From the NCBI GenBank assembly GCA_052034955.1, contig JBPOHZ010000015.1, positions 26,998 to 90,997 on the forward strand: 64,000 nt of DNA, written 5' to 3'. The translations under genes were made by a program, and so were the position numbers. The notes under the pieces are model-generated. The model was not told where the DNA came from, searched no databases, and saw nothing but the letters and a program-made list of their open reading frames with translations. This document shows, piece by piece, positions 10,135 to 57,910 of this stretch. This stretch comes from Candidatus Saccharimonadota bacterium. Lineage in GTDB: Bacteria > Patescibacteriota > Saccharimonadia > Saccharimonadales > AWTP1-31. Each line of letters begins with the position of its first letter. The stretch's first letter is position 1.

Positions 10135-11530
10135 TACGTATAAATATGTTAAAATAGTACTTAATATGAGCGCATATTCTGCCGAAGTTAATTACGGACT
10201 ATTGCTTGATTCTGTTGCCGAAACTGCTCAGGTCATGGATGTGTTAAGGCCGACCTCGGTTCAGGTTTGTAGGGACACTTTTGGCTTGCGCGCAATCGAG
10301 GCAGTAGCAATTGCTGACCATGCCGAAGTATATGGACCGATAATTGGTAAAGCAATTGCATCAGTCTCGCTTATGATGCAGGGCCAAGAAAACGTAGGTA
10401 ATCTTTCTGGAAGCCAAAAGTTTGGGCCACGGATGGTTGCCAGAAGGGTCGCTAGGCCTACTAAGTTTCACCGTGAAACTGCCGATTTCGAGCTAAAAGA
10501 GCTTAGGCGTGAACTAAGAACTATGAGCGGGGACTATCCTGCCGATTTCGAAGCTTCAGTATCGGATATCCTGGACTATGATGGGGCGCTAAAGGAAGAG
10601 GCCGATCTATGGCTTGGTGATAATGGGTTAAGCCAGGATCCACTACCCTACACTAGATGGATTAACCGACATTGGTCCGACGATTCGGCAGACAAAAGCC
10701 GGCTGAGGCTTATCCGCGCGAATAAACGCCAAATAACCGAACTCCAAGGAAGCGAAGAAGTACAGCAGGGAATAGCCGAATCTAAAAGACGGTGGATGGA
10801 AAGAACAGAAGAATTAGTAGACGAAGGAGTCTTTCACCCTTCGATTATAAAAAGGCATAAACGCCTGGCCAAGACAGGTGTATTTGTTGGGGACGATTTT
10901 TCTATCCACCTTTCTGGCAGGGGCGGATATGCCAGATCGGACAGAAACTTAGTAGCTGTCGGGAAAAGCATACTTGTAAATCCAAACGGAAGTAATTACC
11001 AAAGGACGGTGTTGCCGCATGAATACTATCATATTGCTGGCAATGGACGAGATACTAGAATGGCTCAGCTTGCAATGCATGTCACATCATTAGATAACAA
11101 CTTTGCTTATGAGGCATTGACTCAAATTGGAGCCGAAGTCATAGAGCTGGGAGTAGATCCTGGTGTTGTAGATCAACAAACTCACGCCTACCTTGCCTAT
11201 AAAGGGATAATAAACTGGATAGTTACTACCGCACAAAGCAGGGGCGTAGATATTTCACCTAAAAGGTTACTTTATGCCGATACCGCCCCCAATGAAGATA
11301 GGGTCAAGGCATCAAGGGTTATAGATAAAGACCTGGAAGGTGCACTGGGAATTTCTAGAGACGGTTCTAGTACCTTCAAGGCAGTACAAGTATCTTTGAA
11401 TGCATATGTGGAGAGGTTTAAAACGGCCAATGCCTCAGAAGCTCGGCTAGGTTCGGTTAGAGATCAGGGCGCCAAGGTGATACTATCTCGGCTCATTGAG
11501 TACGGCCGACTACCTGTAAATTGGAACTAA
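10127..11530 (+). CDS. hypothetical protein with HExxH zincin-like motif
   Basis: 467 aa, no signal peptide. Contains PHEYYHIAG (HExxH) with a downstream acidic residue; otherwise unrecognised. Confidence 0.5.
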   Translation: MPNTYKYVKIVLNMSAYSAEVNYGLLLDSVAETAQVMDVLRPTSVQVCRDTFGLRAIEAVAIADHAEVYGPIIGKAIASVSLMMQGQENVGNLSGSQKFGPRMVARRVARPTKFHRETADFELKELRRELRTMSGDYPADFEASVSDILDYDGALKEEADLWLGDNGLSQDPLPYTRWINRHWSDDSADKSRLRLIRANKRQITELQGSEEVQQGIAESKRRWMERTEELVDEGVFHPSIIKRHKRLAKTGVFVGDDFSIHLSGRGGYARSDRNLVAVGKSILVNPNGSNYQRTVLPHEYYHIAGNGRDTRMAQLAMHVTSLDNNFAYEALTQIGAEVIELGVDPGVVDQQTHAYLAYKGIINWIVTTAQSRGVDISPKRLLYADTAPNEDRVKASRVIDKDLEGALGISRDGSSTFKAVQVSLNAYVERFKTANASEARLGSVRDQGAKVILSRLIEYGRLPVNWN

Positions 11531-30151: not shown

Positions 30152-30866
30152 ATTAGACCAACTAATGGTAGCCCGGGAGATGATTAATTCTCGCAGCCAG
30201 GCGGAGAGCTACATTAAGCTCGGAAAAGTTAAGGTCAATGGAAACGTAGTTACCAGAGCGGGGACTATGGTTTGGCCAGACGCCGAAATCGATTTAGGAG
30301 TTACAGAGCAATATGTATCTAGGGCAGGCCTAAAACTTGCCTCAGTAGCGGAGCGTCTAAACCTAGATTTTAAGGGCAAGACTGTACTTGATGTCGGTTC
30401 TTCCACTGGAGGATTTACAGATTATTCTCTAAAGCATGGTGCCAAGAAGGTGATAGCCGTGGAAGTTGGTACCGATCAGTTGCATCCAACTTTGCACGGT
30501 AATCCACAAATAGAATTGCACGAACAAACTGACATTAGGGATTTCAAAACCGACGACAAAATAGATATTGCCGTGGCAGATGTTTCGTTTATCAGTCTGC
30601 GTCATATACTTCCAGCTGTTTCTAGACTGGTAGCACCAGGTGGGCAAGTAGTAGCTATGGTTAAACCACAATTCGAAACTCGAGATAGCGACCTTAGGCA
30701 TAAAGGTGTTATTAAAAACGAAAAGATGCGCCGCGATATACTGAAGGACTTTGAGGATTGGGCCAAAACAGCCTTTGTTGTTCTTAACAAGATTGACTCC
30801 GATGTTGCTGGTGCCAAAGGGAATCGCGAGCGCTTCTACCTCCTTAGGGTGGTTAGCAAAAAGTAG
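30132..30866 (+). CDS. tlyA: TlyA-family rRNA 2'-O-methyltransferase (S4 plus FtsJ-like domains)
   Basis: RLDQLMVAREMINSRSQAESYI..GKVKVNG S4 domain, then the SAM site VLDVGSSTGGFTD. Probable GTG start at 30132 with a GGGAG Shine-Dalgarno. Confidence 0.75.
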   Translation: MSASKTRLDQLMVAREMINSRSQAESYIKLGKVKVNGNVVTRAGTMVWPDAEIDLGVTEQYVSRAGLKLASVAERLNLDFKGKTVLDVGSSTGGFTDYSLKHGAKKVIAVEVGTDQLHPTLHGNPQIELHEQTDIRDFKTDDKIDIAVADVSFISLRHILPAVSRLVAPGGQVVAMVKPQFETRDSDLRHKGVIKNEKMRRDILKDFEDWAKTAFVVLNKIDSDVAGAKGNRERFYLLRVVSKK

Positions 30867-30902
30867 TAGTAGGTCGGTGTCTCGACCGTGTACTATTAGT
30901 AC

Positions 30903-31556
30903 ATGTATTTTACCGACCGGGTGGAAGCCGGCAAAAGATTGGCAGATGAACTGGCACTAAAAGAAAATAAGAATTGTACATTAGTTGCCTTATCTGACGG
31001 CGCGGTTGTAATTGCCGCCCAAATTGCTGCTTCTCTGGAGTGTCCAATAGCCATGCTACTGGCCGAACCCATTCACGCACCTGGTGAGCCAGATGCAGTG
31101 GCCAGTATTAGCCAAGAGGGCACCTATAGCTTCAACAGCGCCTATTCCCAAGGTCAGCAAGACGAATTTGATATGGAGTATCACCATATCTTCGAGCAGC
31201 AGAAGCTAGAGAAGCTTTCAGAGATGCATCGTATGCTTGGCAAGAACGAGCTCATTCGTCATGACATGCTGAAGGGCCACACTGTTATTTTGGTCGCCGA
31301 TGGTCTAGGTAGTGTAGTCACTATAGACGCCGCCGTTCTATTCCTAAAATCTATCAAGGTCAAGAAGCTAATCATTGCAACGCCGTTTGCCGCCGTCAAT
31401 GTAGTAGATAGGATGCATATTTTGGCAGACGAGATAGCCTGTCTTAACGTGGTCGAGAACTTTATGGGTACCGACCACTACTACGAGAACAACCAACTGC
31501 CTCCACATACTGTTATTATAGAAACCATTCAAAATATGGTCCAAAACTGGAAATAA
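30903..31556 (+). CDS. predicted phosphoribosyltransferase-domain protein
   Basis: N-terminal F.DR.EAG..LA..L, and a PRTase type I-like VILVADGLGS motif. Confidence 0.55.
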   Translation: MYFTDRVEAGKRLADELALKENKNCTLVALSDGAVVIAAQIAASLECPIAMLLAEPIHAPGEPDAVASISQEGTYSFNSAYSQGQQDEFDMEYHHIFEQQKLEKLSEMHRMLGKNELIRHDMLKGHTVILVADGLGSVVTIDAAVLFLKSIKVKKLIIATPFAAVNVVDRMHILADEIACLNVVENFMGTDHYYENNQLPPHTVIIETIQNMVQNWK

Positions 31557-46663: not shown

Positions 46664-46692
46664 AAAAATAGCCCCCTCGGGGGCTATTTTTT
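46664..46692 (+). terminator. rho-independent terminator after the pilin gene
   Basis: AAAATAGCCCCC-tcg-GGGGGCTATTTTTT perfect hairpin plus a T-run. Confidence 0.8.
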
Positions 46693-46710
46693 ATATGCTA
46701 GTATAACTAC

Positions 46711-47523
46711 ATGATAATAGTAATGCTTGTTGTTTGGGGGCTATGCCTTGGTAGCTTTGCTAATGCTGCAGTATGGCGTCTGTATAAGCAGTCTAAGGGT
46801 CAAAAAGGTAATAAGTACTCTATCAGTCGAGGCAGATCAATGTGTACTCACTGCAAGCACCTTCTGGCTCCTAAGGACCTTGTTCCGGTATTCAGCTGGC
46901 TTTACCTAAAGGGTAAGTGCAGATATTGCCTTAAGCCAATTCAAGATAATCCTTTACCAGAGCTTATAACCCCGATTCTGTTCTTGGTGTCGTATATCTA
47001 TTGGCCTCATAGCTGGGACGTTTACGGCGTATACTTGTTTGTATTTTGGCTGATTTATATCGTCGGTTTCGTGATTCTGTCATTGTACGATCTACGATGG
47101 TACCTTCTTCCCAACAAGGTAATAGTAGTTTTATCAGTACTTTTTGCCACCCAACTGCTGGGCGAGGTGCTATTTTTTGACCAGACCCCGGGATATCTTA
47201 TCCGAGTTATGGGAGGTAGTTTGGTCGGAGGCGGAATATTCTGGTTAATCTTTCAGGTGTCTAAGGGTAAATGGATTGGTGGCGGGGACGTTAAATTGGG
47301 GGCGCTGCTCGGAGCCGTCTTAGTTGGACCGGTCTTTGCGGCAATGATGATCTTCTTTGCTTCGGTGATTGGAACACTTCTATCTGTACCGCTGTTATTA
47401 AACAAGAAATTAAAAGTAAACTCCAAGCTGCCGTTTGGTCCATTATTAATGACTGCAACAGTAATTGTATATTTATTCGGGCCAAGTTTATGGAGCTGGT
47501 ATCTGTCGAATCTAGGGGTTTAG
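46711..47523 (+). CDS. pilD: prepilin peptidase (A24 family)
   Basis: N-terminal CxxC...CxxC zinc motif, eight TM helices, catalytic Asp pair. Confidence 0.85.
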   Translation: MIIVMLVVWGLCLGSFANAAVWRLYKQSKGQKGNKYSISRGRSMCTHCKHLLAPKDLVPVFSWLYLKGKCRYCLKPIQDNPLPELITPILFLVSYIYWPHSWDVYGVYLFVFWLIYIVGFVILSLYDLRWYLLPNKVIVVLSVLFATQLLGEVLFFDQTPGYLIRVMGGSLVGGGIFWLIFQVSKGKWIGGGDVKLGALLGAVLVGPVFAAMMIFFASVIGTLLSVPLLLNKKLKVNSKLPFGPLLMTATVIVYLFGPSLWSWYLSNLGV

Positions 47524-50460: not shown

Positions 50461-51441
50461 CTAGTCAGATTTATTATGGAACTTCTCGTGGACCGATTTT
50501 AGGTGCGGGTCGGTGACGTGAGTGTATATCTGGGTCGTGGCAATATTGCTGTGTCCCAACATGCTTTGGACGCTCCTGATGTCGGCACCATTCATAAGTA
50601 GGTCAGTGGCGAAGCTGTGGCGTAGGGTGTGCGGCGACACATGTTTGGTTATACCAGCCAGTAGGGCAGTTTTTGCAACCATTCTTTGGACGCTGCGGGC
50701 TGTTAGCCTATGAAAGTTGCCGCTGGTGTCTATTTTTTTCTGACCACTGTAACGAACGAATAATGGCTTAACATTATCTTGCCTCTGACCCAGGTATTTA
50801 GTCAGCCAGTCTGCCGCTTCGGGGCTAATAAAGATCGGCCGGTCTTTTTGGCCCTTACCTCTGACAGTGAACTCTCGTCGTTTTAAGTTTATATGATCTC
50901 TATCTAATCCCACTAGCTCCGATACACGCAGGCCACTGCTAAAAAGAAGCTCTAGTATTGCTCTGTCTCGTAAGCCCATGATATTGCTGATATTACAGGC
51001 TGCAAGAAGCCGTTCTACCTCCTCTGGAGTTAAAAAGGTGACCTGTTTGCGAGTAGTTCTGGCCAATTCTACTTTATCGGCACTCAGGGCAGCTATATCT
51101 CGCTTGGCGCAATATTTAAGAAAGCTACGTAGGGCAATTAGGTGATAGTTCTGAGTTGTCTTTTGGAGCTCGTCGCTCGTATTGGTCCCCAAACGGTTCA
51201 GCCATAGACGCCATTTTCTTACCAGCTCCGGAGTTACGTCGGAGACTTGTATCTCTCCAGCGTAATCAGTTAAACGAGTTAGGTAGTGATCGTAGTTAGC
51301 AATGGTCTTTTGGGAACGATTCTGTTCAATCTCTAGGTACTCTAGGAAATCGGTTTTTACTTTACTAAGTAGCATAGACATTACTATATATAGGCTGCTC
51401 CTGGTAGTCGAGTAGATACGCTCATGACAAACGCCTCCCAA
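50461..51441 (-). CDS. tyrosine site-specific recombinase, XerC/XerD family
   Basis: C-terminal R...HxLRH...Y catalytic region HTLRHSFATDLL...GHSNIATTQIYTHV. Confidence 0.8.
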   Translation of the reverse strand: MGGVCHERIYSTTRSSLYIVMSMLLSKVKTDFLEYLEIEQNRSQKTIANYDHYLTRLTDYAGEIQVSDVTPELVRKWRLWLNRLGTNTSDELQKTTQNYHLIALRSFLKYCAKRDIAALSADKVELARTTRKQVTFLTPEEVERLLAACNISNIMGLRDRAILELLFSSGLRVSELVGLDRDHINLKRREFTVRGKGQKDRPIFISPEAADWLTKYLGQRQDNVKPLFVRYSGQKKIDTSGNFHRLTARSVQRMVAKTALLAGITKHVSPHTLRHSFATDLLMNGADIRSVQSMLGHSNIATTQIYTHVTDPHLKSVHEKFHNKSD

Positions 51442-52730: not shown

Positions 52731-53788
52731 AGAAATACGTACAAAAACTCAAGGACCGCAAAGAAGCCAAAGCTAAGAGGTCAGAAGTTGCCCTAGTAGA
52801 GGCATCCAACCCAAAGATAACCAACGAGACTGTGGCCGAGCACCGCGAAGAAGTACTGTCCAGTGCCCGTAAGTACATTTATCCATTGCAGCATTCTAAG
52901 CATAAGATAGTGGTTATTACTACGACCTTATTTATCGTTACATTGGTAGCATTTGTTAGTTACACTACACTGTCGCTATATAAACTAAAGTCTAACTCAT
53001 CATTTCTGTATGGTGTTACTAAGGTCTTTCCGTTTCCGGTGGCAAAAGCCGGTGGTAATTTTGTAGCCTACGAAAATTACCTGTTTGAGCTACGCCATTA
53101 TATTCACTACTATCGTAACCAACAAAAGTTAGACTTTGATTCAGAGTCAGGGCGACAACAACTTGCCGAATTCAAGAAGAGAGCTCTAGATAAAGTGGTC
53201 AACGATGCCTATGTAAAGCAACTTGCTAAGCAAAATAACGTTACTGTCAGTAATCAAGAGGTACAAGCCGAGATAAAGATAGTGCGCGACCAGAACAGGC
53301 TCGGCGGTAGTGACAAAGTGTTTGAAGATGTACTAAAAGAGTACTGGGGTTGGTCTGTTACGGACTTCGAAAGAAGCCTTCAGCAACAACTCTTAGCCCA
53401 AAAACTGCTACCAATATTGGATAAAGAGCTAGTTGCTAAGGCTCAGGCCGCCAAATCTGAGCTAGATAACAAAGCCGACTTTGCTAAGGTTGCTCAAAAA
53501 TACTCGGACGATACAATAACCAAAGATAACGGTGGAGAGATCGACGGCGAGATAGACCGTTCCAATAGAGAAATAGCAGCTCAAACTGTCTCGACATTGT
53601 TTAGTCTTAAGCCAGGGCAGTACTCTACGGTCATTAATACCGGATACAGCCTAGAGATAGTAAAGAGTCTAGATAAGCAGGGCGACAAGGCTCGTGCCGC
53701 GCATATTGTATTCAACTTCAAAGACATAGACGCCTATCTAAATGACTTCAAAGATCAGAAAAAAGCTAGTCTATATATCAAGCTCTAA
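52727..53788 (+). CDS. membrane-anchored PpiC/parvulin-type peptidyl-prolyl isomerase (PrsA/SurA-like)
   Basis: N-terminal TM helix, a chaperone-like helical domain, and a parvulin signature around FAKVAQKYSDD...GG. Confidence 0.6.
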   Translation: MKKYVQKLKDRKEAKAKRSEVALVEASNPKITNETVAEHREEVLSSARKYIYPLQHSKHKIVVITTTLFIVTLVAFVSYTTLSLYKLKSNSSFLYGVTKVFPFPVAKAGGNFVAYENYLFELRHYIHYYRNQQKLDFDSESGRQQLAEFKKRALDKVVNDAYVKQLAKQNNVTVSNQEVQAEIKIVRDQNRLGGSDKVFEDVLKEYWGWSVTDFERSLQQQLLAQKLLPILDKELVAKAQAAKSELDNKADFAKVAQKYSDDTITKDNGGEIDGEIDRSNREIAAQTVSTLFSLKPGQYSTVINTGYSLEIVKSLDKQGDKARAAHIVFNFKDIDAYLNDFKDQKKASLYIKL

Positions 53789-53808
53789 TCTGTTAGAGCT
53801 GAGTAAAT

Positions 53809-54498
53809 TTATTGTTCAAAACTCATCCCGAAGTCGGGATTAATACCATCGGACTCTATAATTTCTTCAGGAAGTTCACGGACTTGATCAAGCATCTCAA
53901 CGTTGATATTTTTAACATAACTTCTGTCTTTTTCCTGCGAAGTAATCCTTAAATATTCATATAGATTTTCGTTTGTTAAGGGCACATACCCATCCTCAAC
54001 AAGCTGCACGGCAAGGGGGTTGTCGTTTGAAACACCCGAACTAAAGTTTGGTGATCCTGCCCACTGCAGTGTTCCGTCTTCACCTAGGAATTGCCCGAAA
54101 GTAACGTCAGCCAAGAATTTTTCACCGTCAATGGTTAGGAGGTTAAATCCATGCTGGAATGCTTCTGGGTATCTATTGCCCGAAGCCAGGGAATGTAAAT
54201 CCAGAAGTTGAACCTTCTTGCTAACTGCATCAAAACCATCACGTTGACTTTGGTCATTTAATACATATCCAAGGATATCTGGCCCTAAGTTACAATCTCC
54301 CCACATTCTGGTGGATCTGCTATCGGAATTACCTCTGGCAACCCAGCCTCTTTCAAATCGCTCGATCACATTTTCAAGTCTTGCGCTAGGTGTTGGTTCC
54401 TGTTCTAGGCCGTCAATCATTGCTCTGGCAAACATCTTGGCATGTTCTTCCGGTAATCTAGCTGTAGGGTCGGTAATATAGGACTGTTGCTCGGTCAT
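53809..54498 (-). CDS. hypothetical protein
   Basis: ORF; translationally coupled (4-nt overlap) with the upstream small membrane protein. Confidence 0.45.
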   Translation of the reverse strand: MTEQQSYITDPTARLPEEHAKMFARAMIDGLEQEPTPSARLENVIERFERGWVARGNSDSRSTRMWGDCNLGPDILGYVLNDQSQRDGFDAVSKKVQLLDLHSLASGNRYPEAFQHGFNLLTIDGEKFLADVTFGQFLGEDGTLQWAGSPNFSSGVSNDNPLAVQLVEDGYVPLTNENLYEYLRITSQEKDRSYVKNINVEMLDQVRELPEEIIESDGINPDFGMSFEQ

Positions 54499-54731
54499 TT
54501 CTGGCTACTTTTTCGGTTAGCGATAAAAGTGATCACTGTTGCTGCAGCTATCCAGTTAGGCACTATGAATAGAACTGCTTCACCGGGCGATGATGTTGTA
54601 TTCATGCCAAGTATCATTGCAAACACTACGTACCCTACAAATATTGCGTAGACAACATAGCCCGCCTTACTAGAGGGGAGGAAACTGCCACGAACCGGCC
54701 TAAACCACGTAACTTTTGTTTTTCTTGCCAT
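54495..54731 (-). CDS. small membrane protein
   Basis: Two TM helices. Confidence 0.4.
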   Translation of the reverse strand: MARKTKVTWFRPVRGSFLPSSKAGYVVYAIFVGYVVFAMILGMNTTSSPGEAVLFIVPNWIAAATVITFIANRKSSQK

Positions 54732-54891
54732 GCCTAAATTATAGCATTAGTAAATTGGCGGGCTTGGAGGCTGTTTTCTGAAAGCTTTAAAAATCTGGCT
54801 TAGGCTTTGGTTCGTGCCATACCGTCGAATGAACGTATGAGGTAGCTGCGGGGAGTGGTACTCCAACCGTGCCGTACTTTAGAGATTTGGA

Positions 54892-55407
54892 CTATACGCT
54901 CACAAGAGATTTGCTTAGTACAACGTCTTCGCCCGCACCCAGCCCGTAAAGGTCTGCTACTTCCTGGATCTCGTACCCATGATTGATTAAAAATGCGACC
55001 ATGTCGGTGTTCGTAACTTTTGTGTCGACCAGAACAGTTTCAACTCCAGGGAAGTCGGCCATTGCTTCAATCTCGGTGTTTCTAAGTAAAAAGCTTCCAA
55101 CCAAGCGGCCCTGGCCTTCTGGCACTACTGATAAGTTGCGGATCTCTAGCACATTTGATCTTTCAGGGTGCCGCTGAAAGATTGCCGCACCAACTGGTAC
55201 GCCATTGTACTGAGCGAGTAGTGCGCGCTTCACCTCATCCTCTAATTGCCCTATGGTCTTATCTATCCATTCGCTGTGAGCAGGGTAGTCAGCTTCTGTT
55301 GGGATCCAGAGTCTAGGACTACGTAGTAAGGTGACGACTTCATCGATCTCGCATGAGGATAACTCATTAGTGAATCTAAAGTCTGCCATTGAAACAAAAA
55401 ATACCAT
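54892..55407 (-). CDS. GNAT-family N-acetyltransferase-like protein (true start probably the Met at 55389)
   Basis: IRNLSVVPEGQGRLVGSFLL resembles the acetyl-CoA-binding Q/RxxGxG/A motif. The annotated first Met lies inside the upstream palindrome. Confidence 0.5.
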   Translation of the reverse strand: MVFFVSMADFRFTNELSSCEIDEVVTLLRSPRLWIPTEADYPAHSEWIDKTIGQLEDEVKRALLAQYNGVPVGAAIFQRHPERSNVLEIRNLSVVPEGQGRLVGSFLLRNTEIEAMADFPGVETVLVDTKVTNTDMVAFLINHGYEIQEVADLYGLGAGEDVVLSKSLVSV

Positions 55408-55447
55408 AAAAATGGTATTTTGTATACTTTGCGGGCCGTAACTTTAG
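55392..55447 (-). repeat. cassette-junction repeat R1 (10-4-10 palindrome plus tRNA-3'-end-like segment)
   Basis: AAAATACCAT-AAAA-ATGGTATTTT followed by TTTGCGGGCCGTAACTTTAG; near-identical to R2. Confidence 0.8.
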
Positions 55448-55920
55448 CTCACAAGCTTTTGTGTCAGTGTGACAGGGACAGGTTCTACTACATTACGCCT
55501 AATACTAAGACAAGCGGCACTTCCTACTGTAAAATTCCTGCAAATGTATGGTCTATCTTCGTATTCATCACAAAATCCGTCAGTAGTTAGGAATGCACAA
55601 TCACCATTCATCTTATATAGTCCTTGCCCTGGTCGCATTGTAAGTGCGGATTCAGCCACACCAAGCCAGAACGCTTTCTCTAAGTCATTTTCAGCATCCA
55701 CTGACAATTGCTTTATACCGTCAGTATTCTTTGACCAGCAAAAGAGCTCTTCTTCATCAGGCTCAATAGTAGGCTCAAGAACCAGTGTTTGCATAGGCGG
55801 CAGGATTCGTAGTAATTCGGCTCCAGCCTCCCTTAATCTGATTGCTTCATCAGCGTAAAGAGCAAGTCTTACGTTTGAACAGCAGGCACCCATACATCTT
55901 TCGGGATTAAACTCAGTCAT
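55444..55920 (-). CDS. YkgJ/UPF0153-like Cys-cluster protein (putative Zn/Fe-binding)
   Basis: N-terminal C-x-x-x-CC (CMGACC) plus a distal DCAFL...GFC...YIC cysteine set. Confidence 0.5.
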   Translation of the reverse strand: MTEFNPERCMGACCSNVRLALYADEAIRLREAGAELLRILPPMQTLVLEPTIEPDEEELFCWSKNTDGIKQLSVDAENDLEKAFWLGVAESALTMRPGQGLYKMNGDCAFLTTDGFCDEYEDRPYICRNFTVGSAACLSIRRNVVEPVPVTLTQKLVS

Positions 55921-55987
55921 AAAGCAAAAAATACCATAAAAATGGTATTTTGTCTACTTTGCGGGCCGTAACTTTAGTTATCTGGAA
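55921..55987 (-). repeat. cassette-junction repeat R2
   Basis: Differs from R1 at only about 3 positions over approximately 55 bp. Confidence 0.8.
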
Positions 55988-55993
55988 CAATTT

Positions 55994-56512
55994 TTATTGC
56001 TCGGCAGGTGTTGCCGAGAGCTGTTGCATGAGCTCTACCGTTGCGGCGAGTTCAGGGGTGGGACCAGCGATAGGTTTTGTTACATAGTGGGTTTCTGCGA
56101 AGAAACCGCTTTCTGTCTCTGTATCTGGCTGAGTAGGTAAGGATTCTGGGTTGATTGATAGAGAAGTTTTACCCTCATAAGTATAGCTATGGATTACACC
56201 AGGAGGCACGACTCCATGGAGAAAAGTAACAGGTGCAGGAGATCGTCTAAAAGCAATGCCCCTAAAGTAGCGTGGGAGAGCGCCAGAGTTTATCGCATCA
56301 GTTGCCGCTTCGCTTATTTCGTCGGGCGTTAGACCTCTTTGCTCAGCTTCTGTTGCAAAATTGTTCATTTGTTGTCGTGCTTCATCTAGAAGAGAGTAGG
56401 CCGTATTATGAAGAGTGGGTGTATATTCAGTTGGTGAATTAGGCTTAGCATCCAACGGTTCTGCTATTGGTTCGGTAGCAGGTGCGGGGTTTCTATTCTT
56501 TCGAAGGAACAT
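55994..56512 (-). CDS. hypothetical protein
   Basis: ORF; the start codon is immediately preceded by R3. Confidence 0.45.
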   Translation of the reverse strand: MFLRKNRNPAPATEPIAEPLDAKPNSPTEYTPTLHNTAYSLLDEARQQMNNFATEAEQRGLTPDEISEAATDAINSGALPRYFRGIAFRRSPAPVTFLHGVVPPGVIHSYTYEGKTSLSINPESLPTQPDTETESGFFAETHYVTKPIAGPTPELAATVELMQQLSATPAEQ

Positions 56513-56566
56513 AAAAAAATATTACCATAAAAATAGTATTTTGTCTAGTGGCGGGCCCGACCGGAT
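56513..56566 (-). repeat. cassette-junction repeat R3, containing an exact 18-nt copy of the tRNA-Asp 3' end
   Basis: Degenerate palindrome ATTACCAT-AAAA-ATAGTAT followed by TGGCGGGCCCGACCGGAT (56549-56566), which is identical to 56719-56736. Confidence 0.8.
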
Positions 56567-56718
56567 AGCCACACATCTATGCCAGTGCTCGGAATAAATT
56601 CCTGCGCTCTGGCTTGATGACCGAACTGGCGATCTCATTCACTTCGTTCATGGATCGCCTCGTTTGTATCGTTGGGCAGCTATGAAAAAGAGCCATCACA
56701 TGGATGACTCATTTTCAC

Positions 56719-56796
56719 TGGCGGGCCCGACCGGATTCGAACCGGCGATCTCCTCCGTGACAGGGAGGCGTGTTAGGCCAGCTACACCACGGGCCC
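56719..56796 (-). tRNA. tRNA-Asp (anticodon GUC)
   Basis: Cloverleaf: acceptor GGGCCCG/CGGGCCC, anticodon loop CUGUCAC (identical to E. coli tRNA-Asp), T-loop TTCGAAT, encoded CCA. Confidence 0.85.
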
Positions 56797-56920
56797 GCAT
56801 CGATACTTAAAAGTAACAGATGATAGTCTAACAATTTAAGGTGTAAATAGCAAGAAATATAATTCTTAAATATTACTTAAATAATTGATTATATTGCTAT
56901 AGGTACATCATAATTTAACT

Positions 56921-57397
56921 ATGGTCACACTCAGAAAACTATTTCCTAACTGCTTGGTTTGTGATGCGATGTTACCCAGAAGGAGCTACAAGTATTGTTC
57001 AAATAAGTGTCAAGCAGACTTTCAGTACGAAAAATACATACATGATTGGAAGTGTGGCAAGGTATCAGGCCTGCAAGCAAGGTTGGGAATAGTCTCTCGG
57101 CATGTAAAACGTTATTTAAGGAGTAAATACCATAACAGATGTTGCATTTGTGGGTGGGCTGAGGTTAATATTGTTACACGTACTGTACCGCTGGTAGCAG
57201 ATCATATTGACGGTAATTGGCAAAACAACAAAGAAGCAAATCTAAGGCTTATTTGCCCTAATTGTGACTCGCTTTCGGCAACTTATGCGGCACTTAACAG
57301 GGGAAAGGGTAGAATAGGTCGAAGGGTTAGCAACAGGGTTAATGTTGCAAGAAGTAATGCAAACAAAGTTGCCGGGGTAACTCAGTTGGTAGAGTAG
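56921..57397 (+). CDS. HNH endonuclease-family protein
   Basis: Cys-rich N-terminus and the HNH core VADHIDGNWQNN...LICPNCD. The last approximately 9 codons read into the tRNA-Thr gene. Confidence 0.6.
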   Translation: MVTLRKLFPNCLVCDAMLPRRSYKYCSNKCQADFQYEKYIHDWKCGKVSGLQARLGIVSRHVKRYLRSKYHNRCCICGWAEVNIVTRTVPLVADHIDGNWQNNKEANLRLICPNCDSLSATYAALNRGKGRIGRRVSNRVNVARSNANKVAGVTQLVE

Positions 57398-57446
57398 CTG
57401 TTTCGTAAATAGCAAGTCGTGGGTTCGAGTCCCATCTCCGGCTCCA
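57371..57446 (+). tRNA. tRNA-Thr (anticodon CGU)
   Basis: Cloverleaf: acceptor GCCGGGG/CTCCGGC, anticodon arm GCTGT-TTCGTAA-ATAGC, T-loop TTCGAGT, discriminator U, CCA. Confidence 0.8.
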
Positions 57447-57457
57447 AATTATCTTAA

Positions 57458-57532
57458 GCGAGTATCGTATAACGGCTATTATGTATCCTTCCCAAGGATG
57501 AGACGAGGGTTCGACTCCCTCTACTCGCACCA
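57458..57532 (+). tRNA. tRNA-Gly (anticodon CCC)
   Basis: Perfect acceptor GCGAGTA/TACTCGC, anticodon loop TTCCCAA, 4-nt variable loop, T-loop TTCGACT, CCA. Confidence 0.7.
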
Positions 57533-57553
57533 AATAGGCTATAATAAATACAA

Positions 57554-57910
57554 ATGCAATTATCACAGAAATACTTACATGACCGAGTTATTCTATTACT
57601 TCTTAGTTTCAATACATTTCTAACATTAATTGGTTCTGTACTTATCTTTTTACAACTTGGTAGTGGCCAGAGTGGCAGGGTGATTGTAGCTTATCGTCCT
57701 AACTTAGGGATTAACTCCTATACACCCGGAAAGTCATCTGATTTCTTGGCATTTGCGTTGTTTCTATTTGTAACATTGGGATTAAACATCGCTTTAAGTG
57801 CACGAATCTACAGCAAGCACCGAAGTTATGCCCTCACAGTTCTCGGACTGGGTTCCTTGGTGGCAGTCGTTACCATTATTGTCAGTAATGCACTTCTGAT
57901 CTTAGGATAA
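57554..57910 (+). CDS. small membrane protein
   Basis: Three TM helices; its stop lies 2 nt before the GT2 start. Confidence 0.45.
   Translation: MQLSQKYLHDRVILLLLSFNTFLTLIGSVLIFLQLGSGQSGRVIVAYRPNLGINSYTPGKSSDFLAFALFLFVTLGLNIALSARIYSKHRSYALTVLGLGSLVAVVTIIVSNALLILG

Follow-up and report, generated by a model that had tools for sequence, protein, structure and literature searches.

What starts a gene when a perfect palindrome occupies the place of its ribosome-binding site? This question is raised by a 64,000-nucleotide stretch of contig JBPOHZ010000015.1 (the window) from a Candidatus Saccharimonadota bacterium (assembly GCA_052034955.1). Here, three minus-strand genes, encoding a GNAT acetyltransferase, a CxxCxxCC (YkgJ-like) protein, and an orphan protein of 172 aa, are each headed by a copy of the 24-mer AAAATACCATAAAAATGGTATTTT, which is composed of AAAATACCAT-AAAA-ATGGTATTTT. 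Two copies are exact, and the degenerate copy that had been noticed before the third gene carries three mismatches (Table 1). No match to the 24-mer occurred in 100 dinucleotide shuffles of the window, with a chance expectation of 0. The palindrome described in the first-pass annotation is therefore real, non-random, and functional-looking. It is separated from the start codon by 8 nt (ATG 55389-55387), 7 nt (ATG 55920-55918), and 6 nt (ATG 56512-56510), and none of the three gaps contains a GGAG/GAGG/AGGA-type sequence, in agreement with the lack of a Shine-Dalgarno (SD) sequence noted earlier. Taken together, the data presented below make it probable that the element is dual-coded, serving leaderless cassette genes as promoter and terminator in one module, with the transcription start and the termination both predicted from sequence.

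In the orientation of the genes, the layout is a -35-like hexamer (TAGACA or TATACA), a 17-nt spacer (AAATACCATTTTTATGG), a -10 hexamer (TATTTT or TAATAT), 6 to 8 nt, and the ATG. All three copies carry a TG before the -10 hexamer. A consensus promoter scan detected sigma-70-like sites at copies 2 and 3, each having 9 of 12 matches, a 17-nt spacer, and a TG-extended -10; copy 1, with one different -35 base and 8 of 12 matches, was missed at the threshold of 9. Judged by these matches, the right (3') arm of the palindrome is an extended -10 element. It is well supported that the palindrome, which the earlier annotation had not recognized in this way, represents the spacer plus the extended -10 of a sigma-70-type promoter with an abutting -35. 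Such an identity would account for both the fixed palindrome-to-ATG distance and the missing ribosome-binding site. Across bacteria, the distance from the -10 to the transcription start is centred on 7 bp (PMC12641261); thus, transcription would begin at or beside the A of the ATG. The resulting mRNA would be leaderless, which would explain the absence of an SD sequence. Overall, a promoter role for the palindrome is very likely, with the start site as predicted. The other arm was also considered as an antisense promoter, which was ruled out by the lack of a -35 and of an open reading frame (ORF).

The same geometry is widespread in the window. TANNNT stands exactly 6 nt before 12 of the 55 ATG first starts, versus 0.2 expected from internal ATGs. 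By a lenient and crude count, a -10 hexamer lies 5 to 8 nt before the ATG in about 26 to 28 of 70 genes, and about 17 to 19 of the 70 have an SD-type start. It had been stated that most other genes carry AGGAG-type SD sequences and that the three genes use a different initiation context. However, the crude count does not bear out the former, and a -10 hexamer 6 to 8 nt before the ATG is too common in the window for the latter. Leaderless-type promoters with TANNNT 6 nt before the ATG precede roughly one-quarter to one-third of the window genes (e.g., 46666-46711, 30860-30903, 54738-54746, and 57533-57554). Some of them abut strong terminators (46666-46689), and one begins 8 nt past the 3' end of tRNA-Gly. 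One palindrome-free example belongs to the same array as the three genes, where the extended -10 TGCTATAAT sits 6 nt before ATG 54731 of a 78-aa gene.

The layout also bears on start codon annotation. The longest GNAT ORF begins within the palindrome at 55407, which adds the extension MVFFVS. GNAT homologues begin with MADFRFTNE, and the identical NCBI product on record has 165 aa; Met 55389, which had been suggested as the true start, is therefore the real one. Database entries of other GNAT homologues (P0006, P0009, P0020, P0031, P0034, P0036, and P0040) carry apparently false N-terminal extensions. Those reading MVFFCFM, MVLFLFM, and ..IVVFLYFM correspond to the translated palindrome, and RFESGRARQ and FKSGRARQ to the translated 3' end of tRNA-Asp. 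Given the leaderless layout, these extensions are probably annotation artefacts.

Species-representative genomes and metagenome contigs were scanned once each, and together with the local searches that followed, these scans yielded about 40 non-redundant modules in Saccharibacteria-like and lower-G+C contigs (loci numbered with L). Their form is T[TA][TG]AC[AG]-AAATACCA[CT]-N4-[GA]TGGTATTTT, and about 25 independent modules keep the full arrangement T[TA][TG]AC[AG]-AAATACCA[CT]-N4-[GA]TGG-TATTTT-6..8 nt-ATG. In the Saccharibacteria-like contigs, the ATG follows 6 to 8 nt after the module. The -35 of the relatives is TTGACA or TTTACA, the arms are nearly invariant, and the loop is freely variable. 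Among the 40 modules, 6 stand right after an intact tRNA, about 24 after a matching pseudo-tRNA end, and about 9 after neither. The exact-arm pattern was found at one locus per species genome, and a scan of viral contigs for the palindrome gave no match. The three window copies likewise lie in a single array within 64 kb, which is unlike the many-copy dispersal of repetitive extragenic palindromes or miniature inverted-repeat transposable elements.

Several variants of this form were also observed. In lower-G+C contigs (L072, L074, L086, L088, and L100; 32 to 37% G+C), the -35 and palindrome stand after tRNA-Gln or a pseudo-tRNA-Gln end and are followed by TGTTATATAA and an AT-rich stretch of 20 to 30 nt before the ATG, rather than by an ATG at 6 to 8 nt. 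A separate repeat family, GGGACCATCCTGAAAACACAAAATACCACATATGTGGTATTTTTACGGAAAAATCGTGAC, shares the 22-nt palindromic core in at least nine contigs of one assembly, JADWZK01 (L071, L073, L075, L083, L087, L093, L096, L099, and L104). Its context is unrelated, with no downstream ATG and no tRNA-like flank, and it was excluded from the analysis. In L080, leaderless-type promoters at 10209 and 11617 (minus strand) contain unrelated palindromes, TATCGCGATA and GGGAAA-ggaa-TTTCCC, in their spacers, a feature that may be more widespread in these genomes.

The pairing of the two arms is conserved together with the promoter. In an alignment of 35 modules, 90% of the cells were paired, versus 46 to 56% when the partners were slid, and the innermost pair was CG in 16 rows and UA in 12. 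Compensatory changes were found in L115, where an A-U to U-A exchange also improves the -10 (ATAATACCAT...ATGGTATTAT), and at L065:5474, where C-G is replaced by U-A. Palindromes of the CAT/ATG and CAC/GTG variants coexist inside single loci (L005 and L030). One cassette in L108 has a different palindrome in the same architecture, TTGACA-CTATACA-taaaggt-TGTATAGT-T7-ATG. In the canonical register, transition mismatches in the arms were sense-strand G.U in five cases and A.C in none. Some diverged copies without the left arm or hairpin still retain the -35, the -10, and the 6- to 8-nt spacing to the ATG. On this basis, we infer that the element acts primarily as a promoter, its most conserved role, and that the hairpin adds a second role, which many copies have kept.

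For the second function, the 3' arm would serve as the extended -10 while the 5' arm is held complementary to it. A transcript reading through from tRNA-Asp or from the preceding cassette would then form a hairpin of 9 to 10 bp followed by at least six U, which is the shape of an intrinsic terminator, ending just before the next start. The predicted free energy of the hairpin plus U-run was -9.2 kcal/mol for the CAT form and -11.5 kcal/mol for the CAC form. Other terminator-like hairpins in the window gave similar values, -8.9 kcal/mol where the 229-aa gene and the SurA-like gene converge and -10.7 kcal/mol just after tRNA-Asp. At least six T follow the stem directly, and the palindrome lies 22 to 42 nt past the upstream stop codon or 9 to 18 nt past a tRNA 3' end. 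In L065, it begins 9 nt after the 3' end of tRNA-Asp, a position that is taken in the window, L005, and L068 by ordinary, GC-richer hairpins with T-runs. A terminator abutting a leaderless promoter also occurs elsewhere in the window (e.g., 46666-46711). The intrinsic terminator suggested in the first-pass annotation is thus plausible in position and shape, less so in its stem of only 2 G-C pairs; the CAC/GTG variants in relatives have 3. For an added terminator role with termination as predicted, we regard the chances as evenly balanced.

Palindrome-headed genes of the window recur as units in other arrays. The CxxCxxCC cassette is found again in L108 with 82% protein identity, where it has different neighbours and belongs to an array comprising at least 10 small genes. 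The two cassettes are homologous at the nucleotide level (about 85%) over the palindrome and the gene, starting in the junction core immediately upstream of the -35 and extending into the next junction, and the flanks are unrelated. The GNAT cassette gave the same boundary picture when compared with L119. In both comparisons, the generic conservation of the junction motif blurs the homology edges and, with them, the exact position of the crossover within it. As the homology starts upstream in the junction core, the palindrome belongs to the 5' margin of the cassette itself, and crossover does not take place in it. By the extent of this homology, single-gene cassettes have the palindrome as their 5' end, with the boundary upstream of it, and it is not the recombination core site that had been proposed as one possibility.

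The junction motif closing each unit is about 35 nt long and consists of box 1, AATAGTTCCAGA, a variable spacer, and box 2, ACGG[CT]CCGCCA[AG]. Box 1 resembles a tRNA T-loop, and box 2 resembles the acceptor 3' end of tRNA-Asp including the CCA. Immediately after this motif, the next unit begins with its -35 and palindrome. The full repeat, longer than first noticed, is a 56-nt unit (family D1; 55392-55447, 55922-55977, and 56513-56568) that extends on its promoter-distal side into a G+C-rich, tRNA-Asp-like motif; copies 1 and 2 are 96% identical across the 56 nt. As in tRNA-anchored islands, partial tRNA 3' ends are present as direct repeats, namely, an exact 18-nt duplicate and degenerate junction copies. 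Similar repeats were found at tRNA-Asn and tRNA-Gln in other contigs, where the arrays have pseudo-ends of their own tRNA and the same palindrome. In Asn-type arrays (L070, L084, and L092), the junction is GTTATAAC-N(10-12)-G[GT]GAGCCAAG[CT]AT; it follows the two-box plan of the Asp type, with boxes from tRNA-Asn.

The array has a fixed frame and a variable content. The window, L005, L065, L115, L117, and L118 share, where the locus extends far enough, ThrRS, a protein of about 540 aa, a small membrane protein, tRNA-(Gly)/Thr, and tRNA-Asp on one side. The other side has SurA-like and bPH genes (followed by NDK, BacA, and a Xer-like recombinase). The genes located between tRNA-Asp and the SurA-like gene are completely different among loci, even in L005, whose SurA-like protein is 73% identical to that of the window. 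A tblastn search with all window cassette proteins against 107 fetched loci gave no matches, so none of these cassettes is shared with those 107. Such variable content at a conserved site, seen in the window, L005, L065, L115, and L117, resembles that of tycheposons. In the proposed arrangement, each module would form the 5' end of a self-contained single-gene cassette that is closed by a pseudo-tRNA-3'-end junction, and the cassettes would be stacked between tRNA-Asp and the SurA-like gene. The features of the array are listed in Table 1.

Table 1. Palindrome modules, junctions, and genes of the tRNA-Asp-anchored array (window positions; promoter elements are predicted)
Feature	Positions	Strand	Remarks
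Palindrome copy 1, perfect 10-4-10	55398-55421	-	TG 55406-55405 and -10 TATTTT 55403-55398 in the 3' arm (gene orientation)
-35-like hexamer TATACA, copy 1	55421-55426	-	17-nt spacer to the -10
Palindrome copy 2, perfect	55928-55951	-	TG, then -10 TATTTT 55933-55928; ATG 55920 after 7 nt
-35-like hexamer TAGACA, copy 2	55951-55956	-	Consensus promoter scan
Palindrome copy 3, 3 mismatches	56519-56542	-	6-bp hairpin with one sense-strand G.U; TG and -10 TAATAT 56524-56519
-35-like hexamer TAGACA, copy 3	56542-56547	-	Consensus promoter scan
Cassette gene 1, GNAT acetyltransferase, 165 aa	54892-55389	-	Start Met 55389
Cassette gene 2, CxxCxxCC (YkgJ-like) protein, 158 aa	55444-55920	-	
Cassette gene 3, 172-aa orphan, no family	55994-56512	-	
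Degenerate junction motif TATAGTCCAAATCTCTAAAGTACGGCACGG	54867-54896	-	After the GNAT gene
Shortened junction motif GCTAAAGTTACGGCCCGCAAAG	55427-55448	-	Separates the CxxCxxCC cassette from the GNAT cassette; the stop codon of the upstream gene falls partly or wholly within it
Junction motif TTGTTCCAGATAACTAAAGTTACGGCCCGCAAAG	55957-55990	-	T-loop-like box 1, variable spacer, box 2 similar to the tRNA-Asp acceptor 3' end; ends the preceding cassette
Exact 18-nt copy of the 3' end of tRNA-Asp (ATCCGGTCGGGCCCGCCA, gene orientation)	56549-56566	-	Directly upstream of copy 3; repeat family D7
ORF-less element from tRNA-Asp to the duplicated 3' end	56567-56718	-	Terminator-like hairpin and T-run 56685-56710; T-arm fragment 56622-56636
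tRNA-Asp(GTC), array anchor	56719-56796	-	
Palindrome-free leaderless promoter, same array	54738-54766	-	Pseudo-tRNA end CAAGCCCGCCAAT (54754-54766); extended -10 TGCTATAAT (54738-54746)

Several observations weigh against a combined promoter-terminator. The -35 hexamers of the window are mediocre (4 of 6 matches). The window palindromes lack the G+C-rich stem of a typical terminator; with 2 G-C pairs they went uncalled by a simple terminator scan, which needs at least 3, and the fold of copy 3 is weak (-3.3 kcal/mol). A hairpin is missing from many of the leaderless promoters in the window and is thus dispensable for promoter function. The module sequences were partly ascertained by patterns requiring both arms. 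The G.U bias of the arm mismatches is only suggestive, because an alternative automated register yields two C.A cells. Finally, about 20 nt are near-identical across lineages of 33 to 47% G+C, which is beyond what a plain terminator needs and may reflect a bound protein.

The last point leads to the alternative that survives best, an operator for a dimeric regulator, as had been offered in the first-pass annotation. In this case, the promoter would be valid and the symmetry would serve protein binding: a repressor bound to the palindrome would mask the -10 and keep the cassette genes silent until a signal arrives. A perfect inverted repeat overlapping the -10 fits this idea, as do the 20 nt almost invariant across distant lineages with a freely variable loop and a conservation exceeding the usual level of terminator stems. 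However, the reading is weakened by the coexistence of CAT/ATG and CAC/GTG variants in the same locus, the substitution of an unrelated palindrome in the one L108 cassette of the same architecture, and the functionally unrelated downstream genes (GNAT, CxxCxxCC, orphan, methyltransferase, NUDIX, and others). Moreover, sense-strand G.U mismatches in the canonical register are not favoured by binding to double-stranded DNA, no regulator gene was seen in the cassettes, and the exact motif occurs at a single locus per species genome. Thus, an operator is unlikely.

Less probable still is that the palindrome serves cassette mobility itself, either as a single-stranded hairpin like an integron attC or as a site for a recombinase or directionality factor beside the pseudo-tRNA crossover. 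At the 5' edge of the cassette, it lies within about 8 to 20 nt of the 3' end of a tRNA or pseudo-tRNA; it is common to arrays at three tRNAs (Asp, Asn, and Gln), and a DNA hairpin specific to one strand would likewise agree with the sense-strand G.U bias. Yet the homology shared between arrays begins in the junction, upstream of the -35 and palindrome, and palindrome-free cassettes exist in the same arrays. Sites of tyrosine recombinases have a central region of 6 to 8 bp, whereas the layout here is 10-4-10, and no integrase is linked to the arrays. The promoter geometry alone explains the fixed distances to the ATG and the -35. A Xer/dif site, with two arms of about 11 bp and a 6-bp centre, was rejected against the 10-4-10 palindrome, which by eye has no dif-like inner ATAA/TTAT arms. 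Dif-like and NrdR-box-like readings were both ruled out on spacing relative to the respective consensus sequences.

The remaining two alternatives are unlikely. A terminator or 5'-untranslated-region hairpin alone, with SD-independent translation of read-through or processed transcripts via the U-rich leader, would agree with the hairpin and U-run and with positions directly after tRNAs, whose 3' processing could make a new 5' end. It is highly improbable, as about 25 modules, hairpin-less copies included, keep the -35, 17 nt, TG-n-10, 6 to 8 nt, and ATG, the -10-to-ATG spacing extends window-wide, and a terminator just before an internal AUG without a ribosome-binding site would leave the gene unexpressed. 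A functionless, recent local duplication, in which the perfect copies are young tandem duplicates of an intergenic region, would suit the near-identity of copies 1 and 2 but hardly deserves credence and is already at odds with the comparisons among genomes: the flanking genes are mutually unrelated, the arms show compensatory changes, and the same 20 to 24 nt recur in many genomes and metagenomes, beside GNAT homologues only 52 to 81% identical in protein.

Scans with Pfam and NCBIfam models detected no integrase in the window array and its flanks or in selected cassette genes of L080, L105, and L107 (the ORFs of L005 and L065 were unscanned), and none was found beside the arrays at tRNA-Asp, tRNA-Asn, and tRNA-Gln. 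In the scanned region of about 47.5 to 63.2 kb, the only tyrosine recombinase was a XerC/D-like protein at 50461-51441 (minus strand), which scored 141 bits against the integron integrase model (cutoff, 265) and does not qualify as an IntI. It is syntenic in L115 (14885-15799) and L117 (13317-14234) and lies 2.4 to 5 kb from the distal end of the array, past the SurA-like, bPH, tRNA-Arg, and NDK genes; it may be only a housekeeping Xer but is the one recombinase observed close to the arrays. More tentatively, and with the balance of probability somewhat on the other side, we suggest an integron-like system without a linked integrase in Saccharibacteria and related candidate phyla radiation bacteria. 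In such a system, single-gene cassettes would be inserted serially at tRNA 3' ends (Asp, Asn, and Gln) with pseudo-tRNA attachment sites, a recombinase would act in trans, and a palindromic promoter-terminator would insulate each gene and express it as a leaderless mRNA. The conserved syntenic Xer-like enzyme is one candidate for the recombinase. A large serine recombinase of 533 aa with Resolvase and Recombinase domains was observed at L108 1-1256 (minus strand), about 5 kb from the array start.

Other parts of the locus were also inspected. The ORF-less element of about 150 nt between tRNA-Asp and copy 3 is conserved at 7067-7234 of L108, where it stands mid-array in a locus without a tRNA gene. 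It consists of a terminator-like hairpin, ACGAGGCGATCCATGAACGARGTGAATGAGATCGCCRGTTCG (a fragment of the tRNA-Asp variable loop and T-arm), a variable insert of about 55 nt at the T-loop position, and a perfect tRNA-Asp 3' end, and it may mark an old attachment site. An Rfam scan of 53500-57600 at E<=1 returned three tRNAs and two sub-threshold chance matches and nothing else. Between tRNA-Asp and tRNA-Thr, a 158-aa ORF resembling HNH or homing endonucleases (56921-57397, plus strand; PADLOC HEase, E=5e-10; weak Pfam HNH_3) extends over the initial 27 nt of tRNA-Thr. As the same interval spans only 115 to 215 nt in the syntenic L005, L065, L115, and L117, this ORF looks like a genome-specific insertion. 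For the cassette proteins, a homologue search with the 172-aa protein returned itself alone, an exact look-up of the window cassette proteins in the assembly index found none on record, and PADLOC defence models gave no convincing match.

Each part of the arrangement has a known counterpart. Extended -10 sigma-70 promoters that make leaderless mRNAs are well studied in Actinobacteria and Deinococcus-Thermus (PMC3160421, PMC3898074). The modules share with them the -35, 17-nt spacer, and TG-n-TANNNT, the ATG 6 to 8 nt past the -10, the lack of an SD sequence, and the use at many genes of the same genome. In contrast, the spacer and -10 here form a perfect palindrome followed by a T-run, and TATTTT is fixed and conserved across lineages beyond the need of a promoter. 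Like intrinsic bidirectional-type terminators with an A-tract and a U-tract, the modules have an A-run, a stem-loop, and a U-run after a tRNA or gene, with an energy like that of other window hairpins. However, the stem is AU-rich with 2 to 3 G-C pairs, its sequence is conserved rather than its shape only, and the descending arm and U-run also provide the -10 for the gene that follows.

The setting, in turn, recalls the tycheposons of Prochlorococcus, which are tRNA-anchored islands arising from serial site-specific integration (bioRxiv 10.1101/2020.12.28.424599). Common to both are a hypervariable region beside a tRNA, partial tRNA 3' ends as direct repeats, tandem units, and content varying among relatives. 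The units here are single genes of 0.5 to 0.9 kb with their own promoter-terminator module, and they have no integrase, replication, or packaging genes and no linked recombinase. As in integron cassette arrays, the one-gene units share one orientation, a conserved site follows each ORF and sometimes gives the stop codon, and the same cassette has different neighbours in different arrays. Unlike in integrons, there is no IntI, insertion is at a tRNA 3' end, and the cassettes bring their own promoters rather than relying on Pc. An attC-type imperfect palindrome with R and L boxes is also missing: the junction TTCCAGA-N-ACGGCCCGCCAAG shows by eye no RYYYAAC...GTTRRRY cores or arms, and the palindrome is at the 5' end of the cassette and not, as attC, at the 3' end. 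The module itself is best explained as a leaderless extended -10 promoter fused with an intrinsic terminator, a new combination of known elements. The more novel part is the setting, namely, single-gene, self-expressing cassettes arrayed beside a tRNA, with no integrase linked to them.

In the searchable literature, no description was found of tRNA-anchored arrays of self-expressing cassettes without a linked integrase, and searches on Saccharibacteria or Patescibacteria gave nothing relevant to leaderless mRNAs, cassettes, integrons, or genomic islands. If the proposed arrangement is true, it would provide a concrete and testable promoter and terminator model for Saccharibacteria, for which we found almost no literature on transcription signals. 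It would also correct start codon annotation, with the N-terminal extensions of several homologues being translated palindrome or tRNA. The palindrome together with the junction motif offers a practical handle to search for such arrays. These arrays would represent a route of gene gain in ultra-small episymbiont genomes that have very few recognisable mobile elements.

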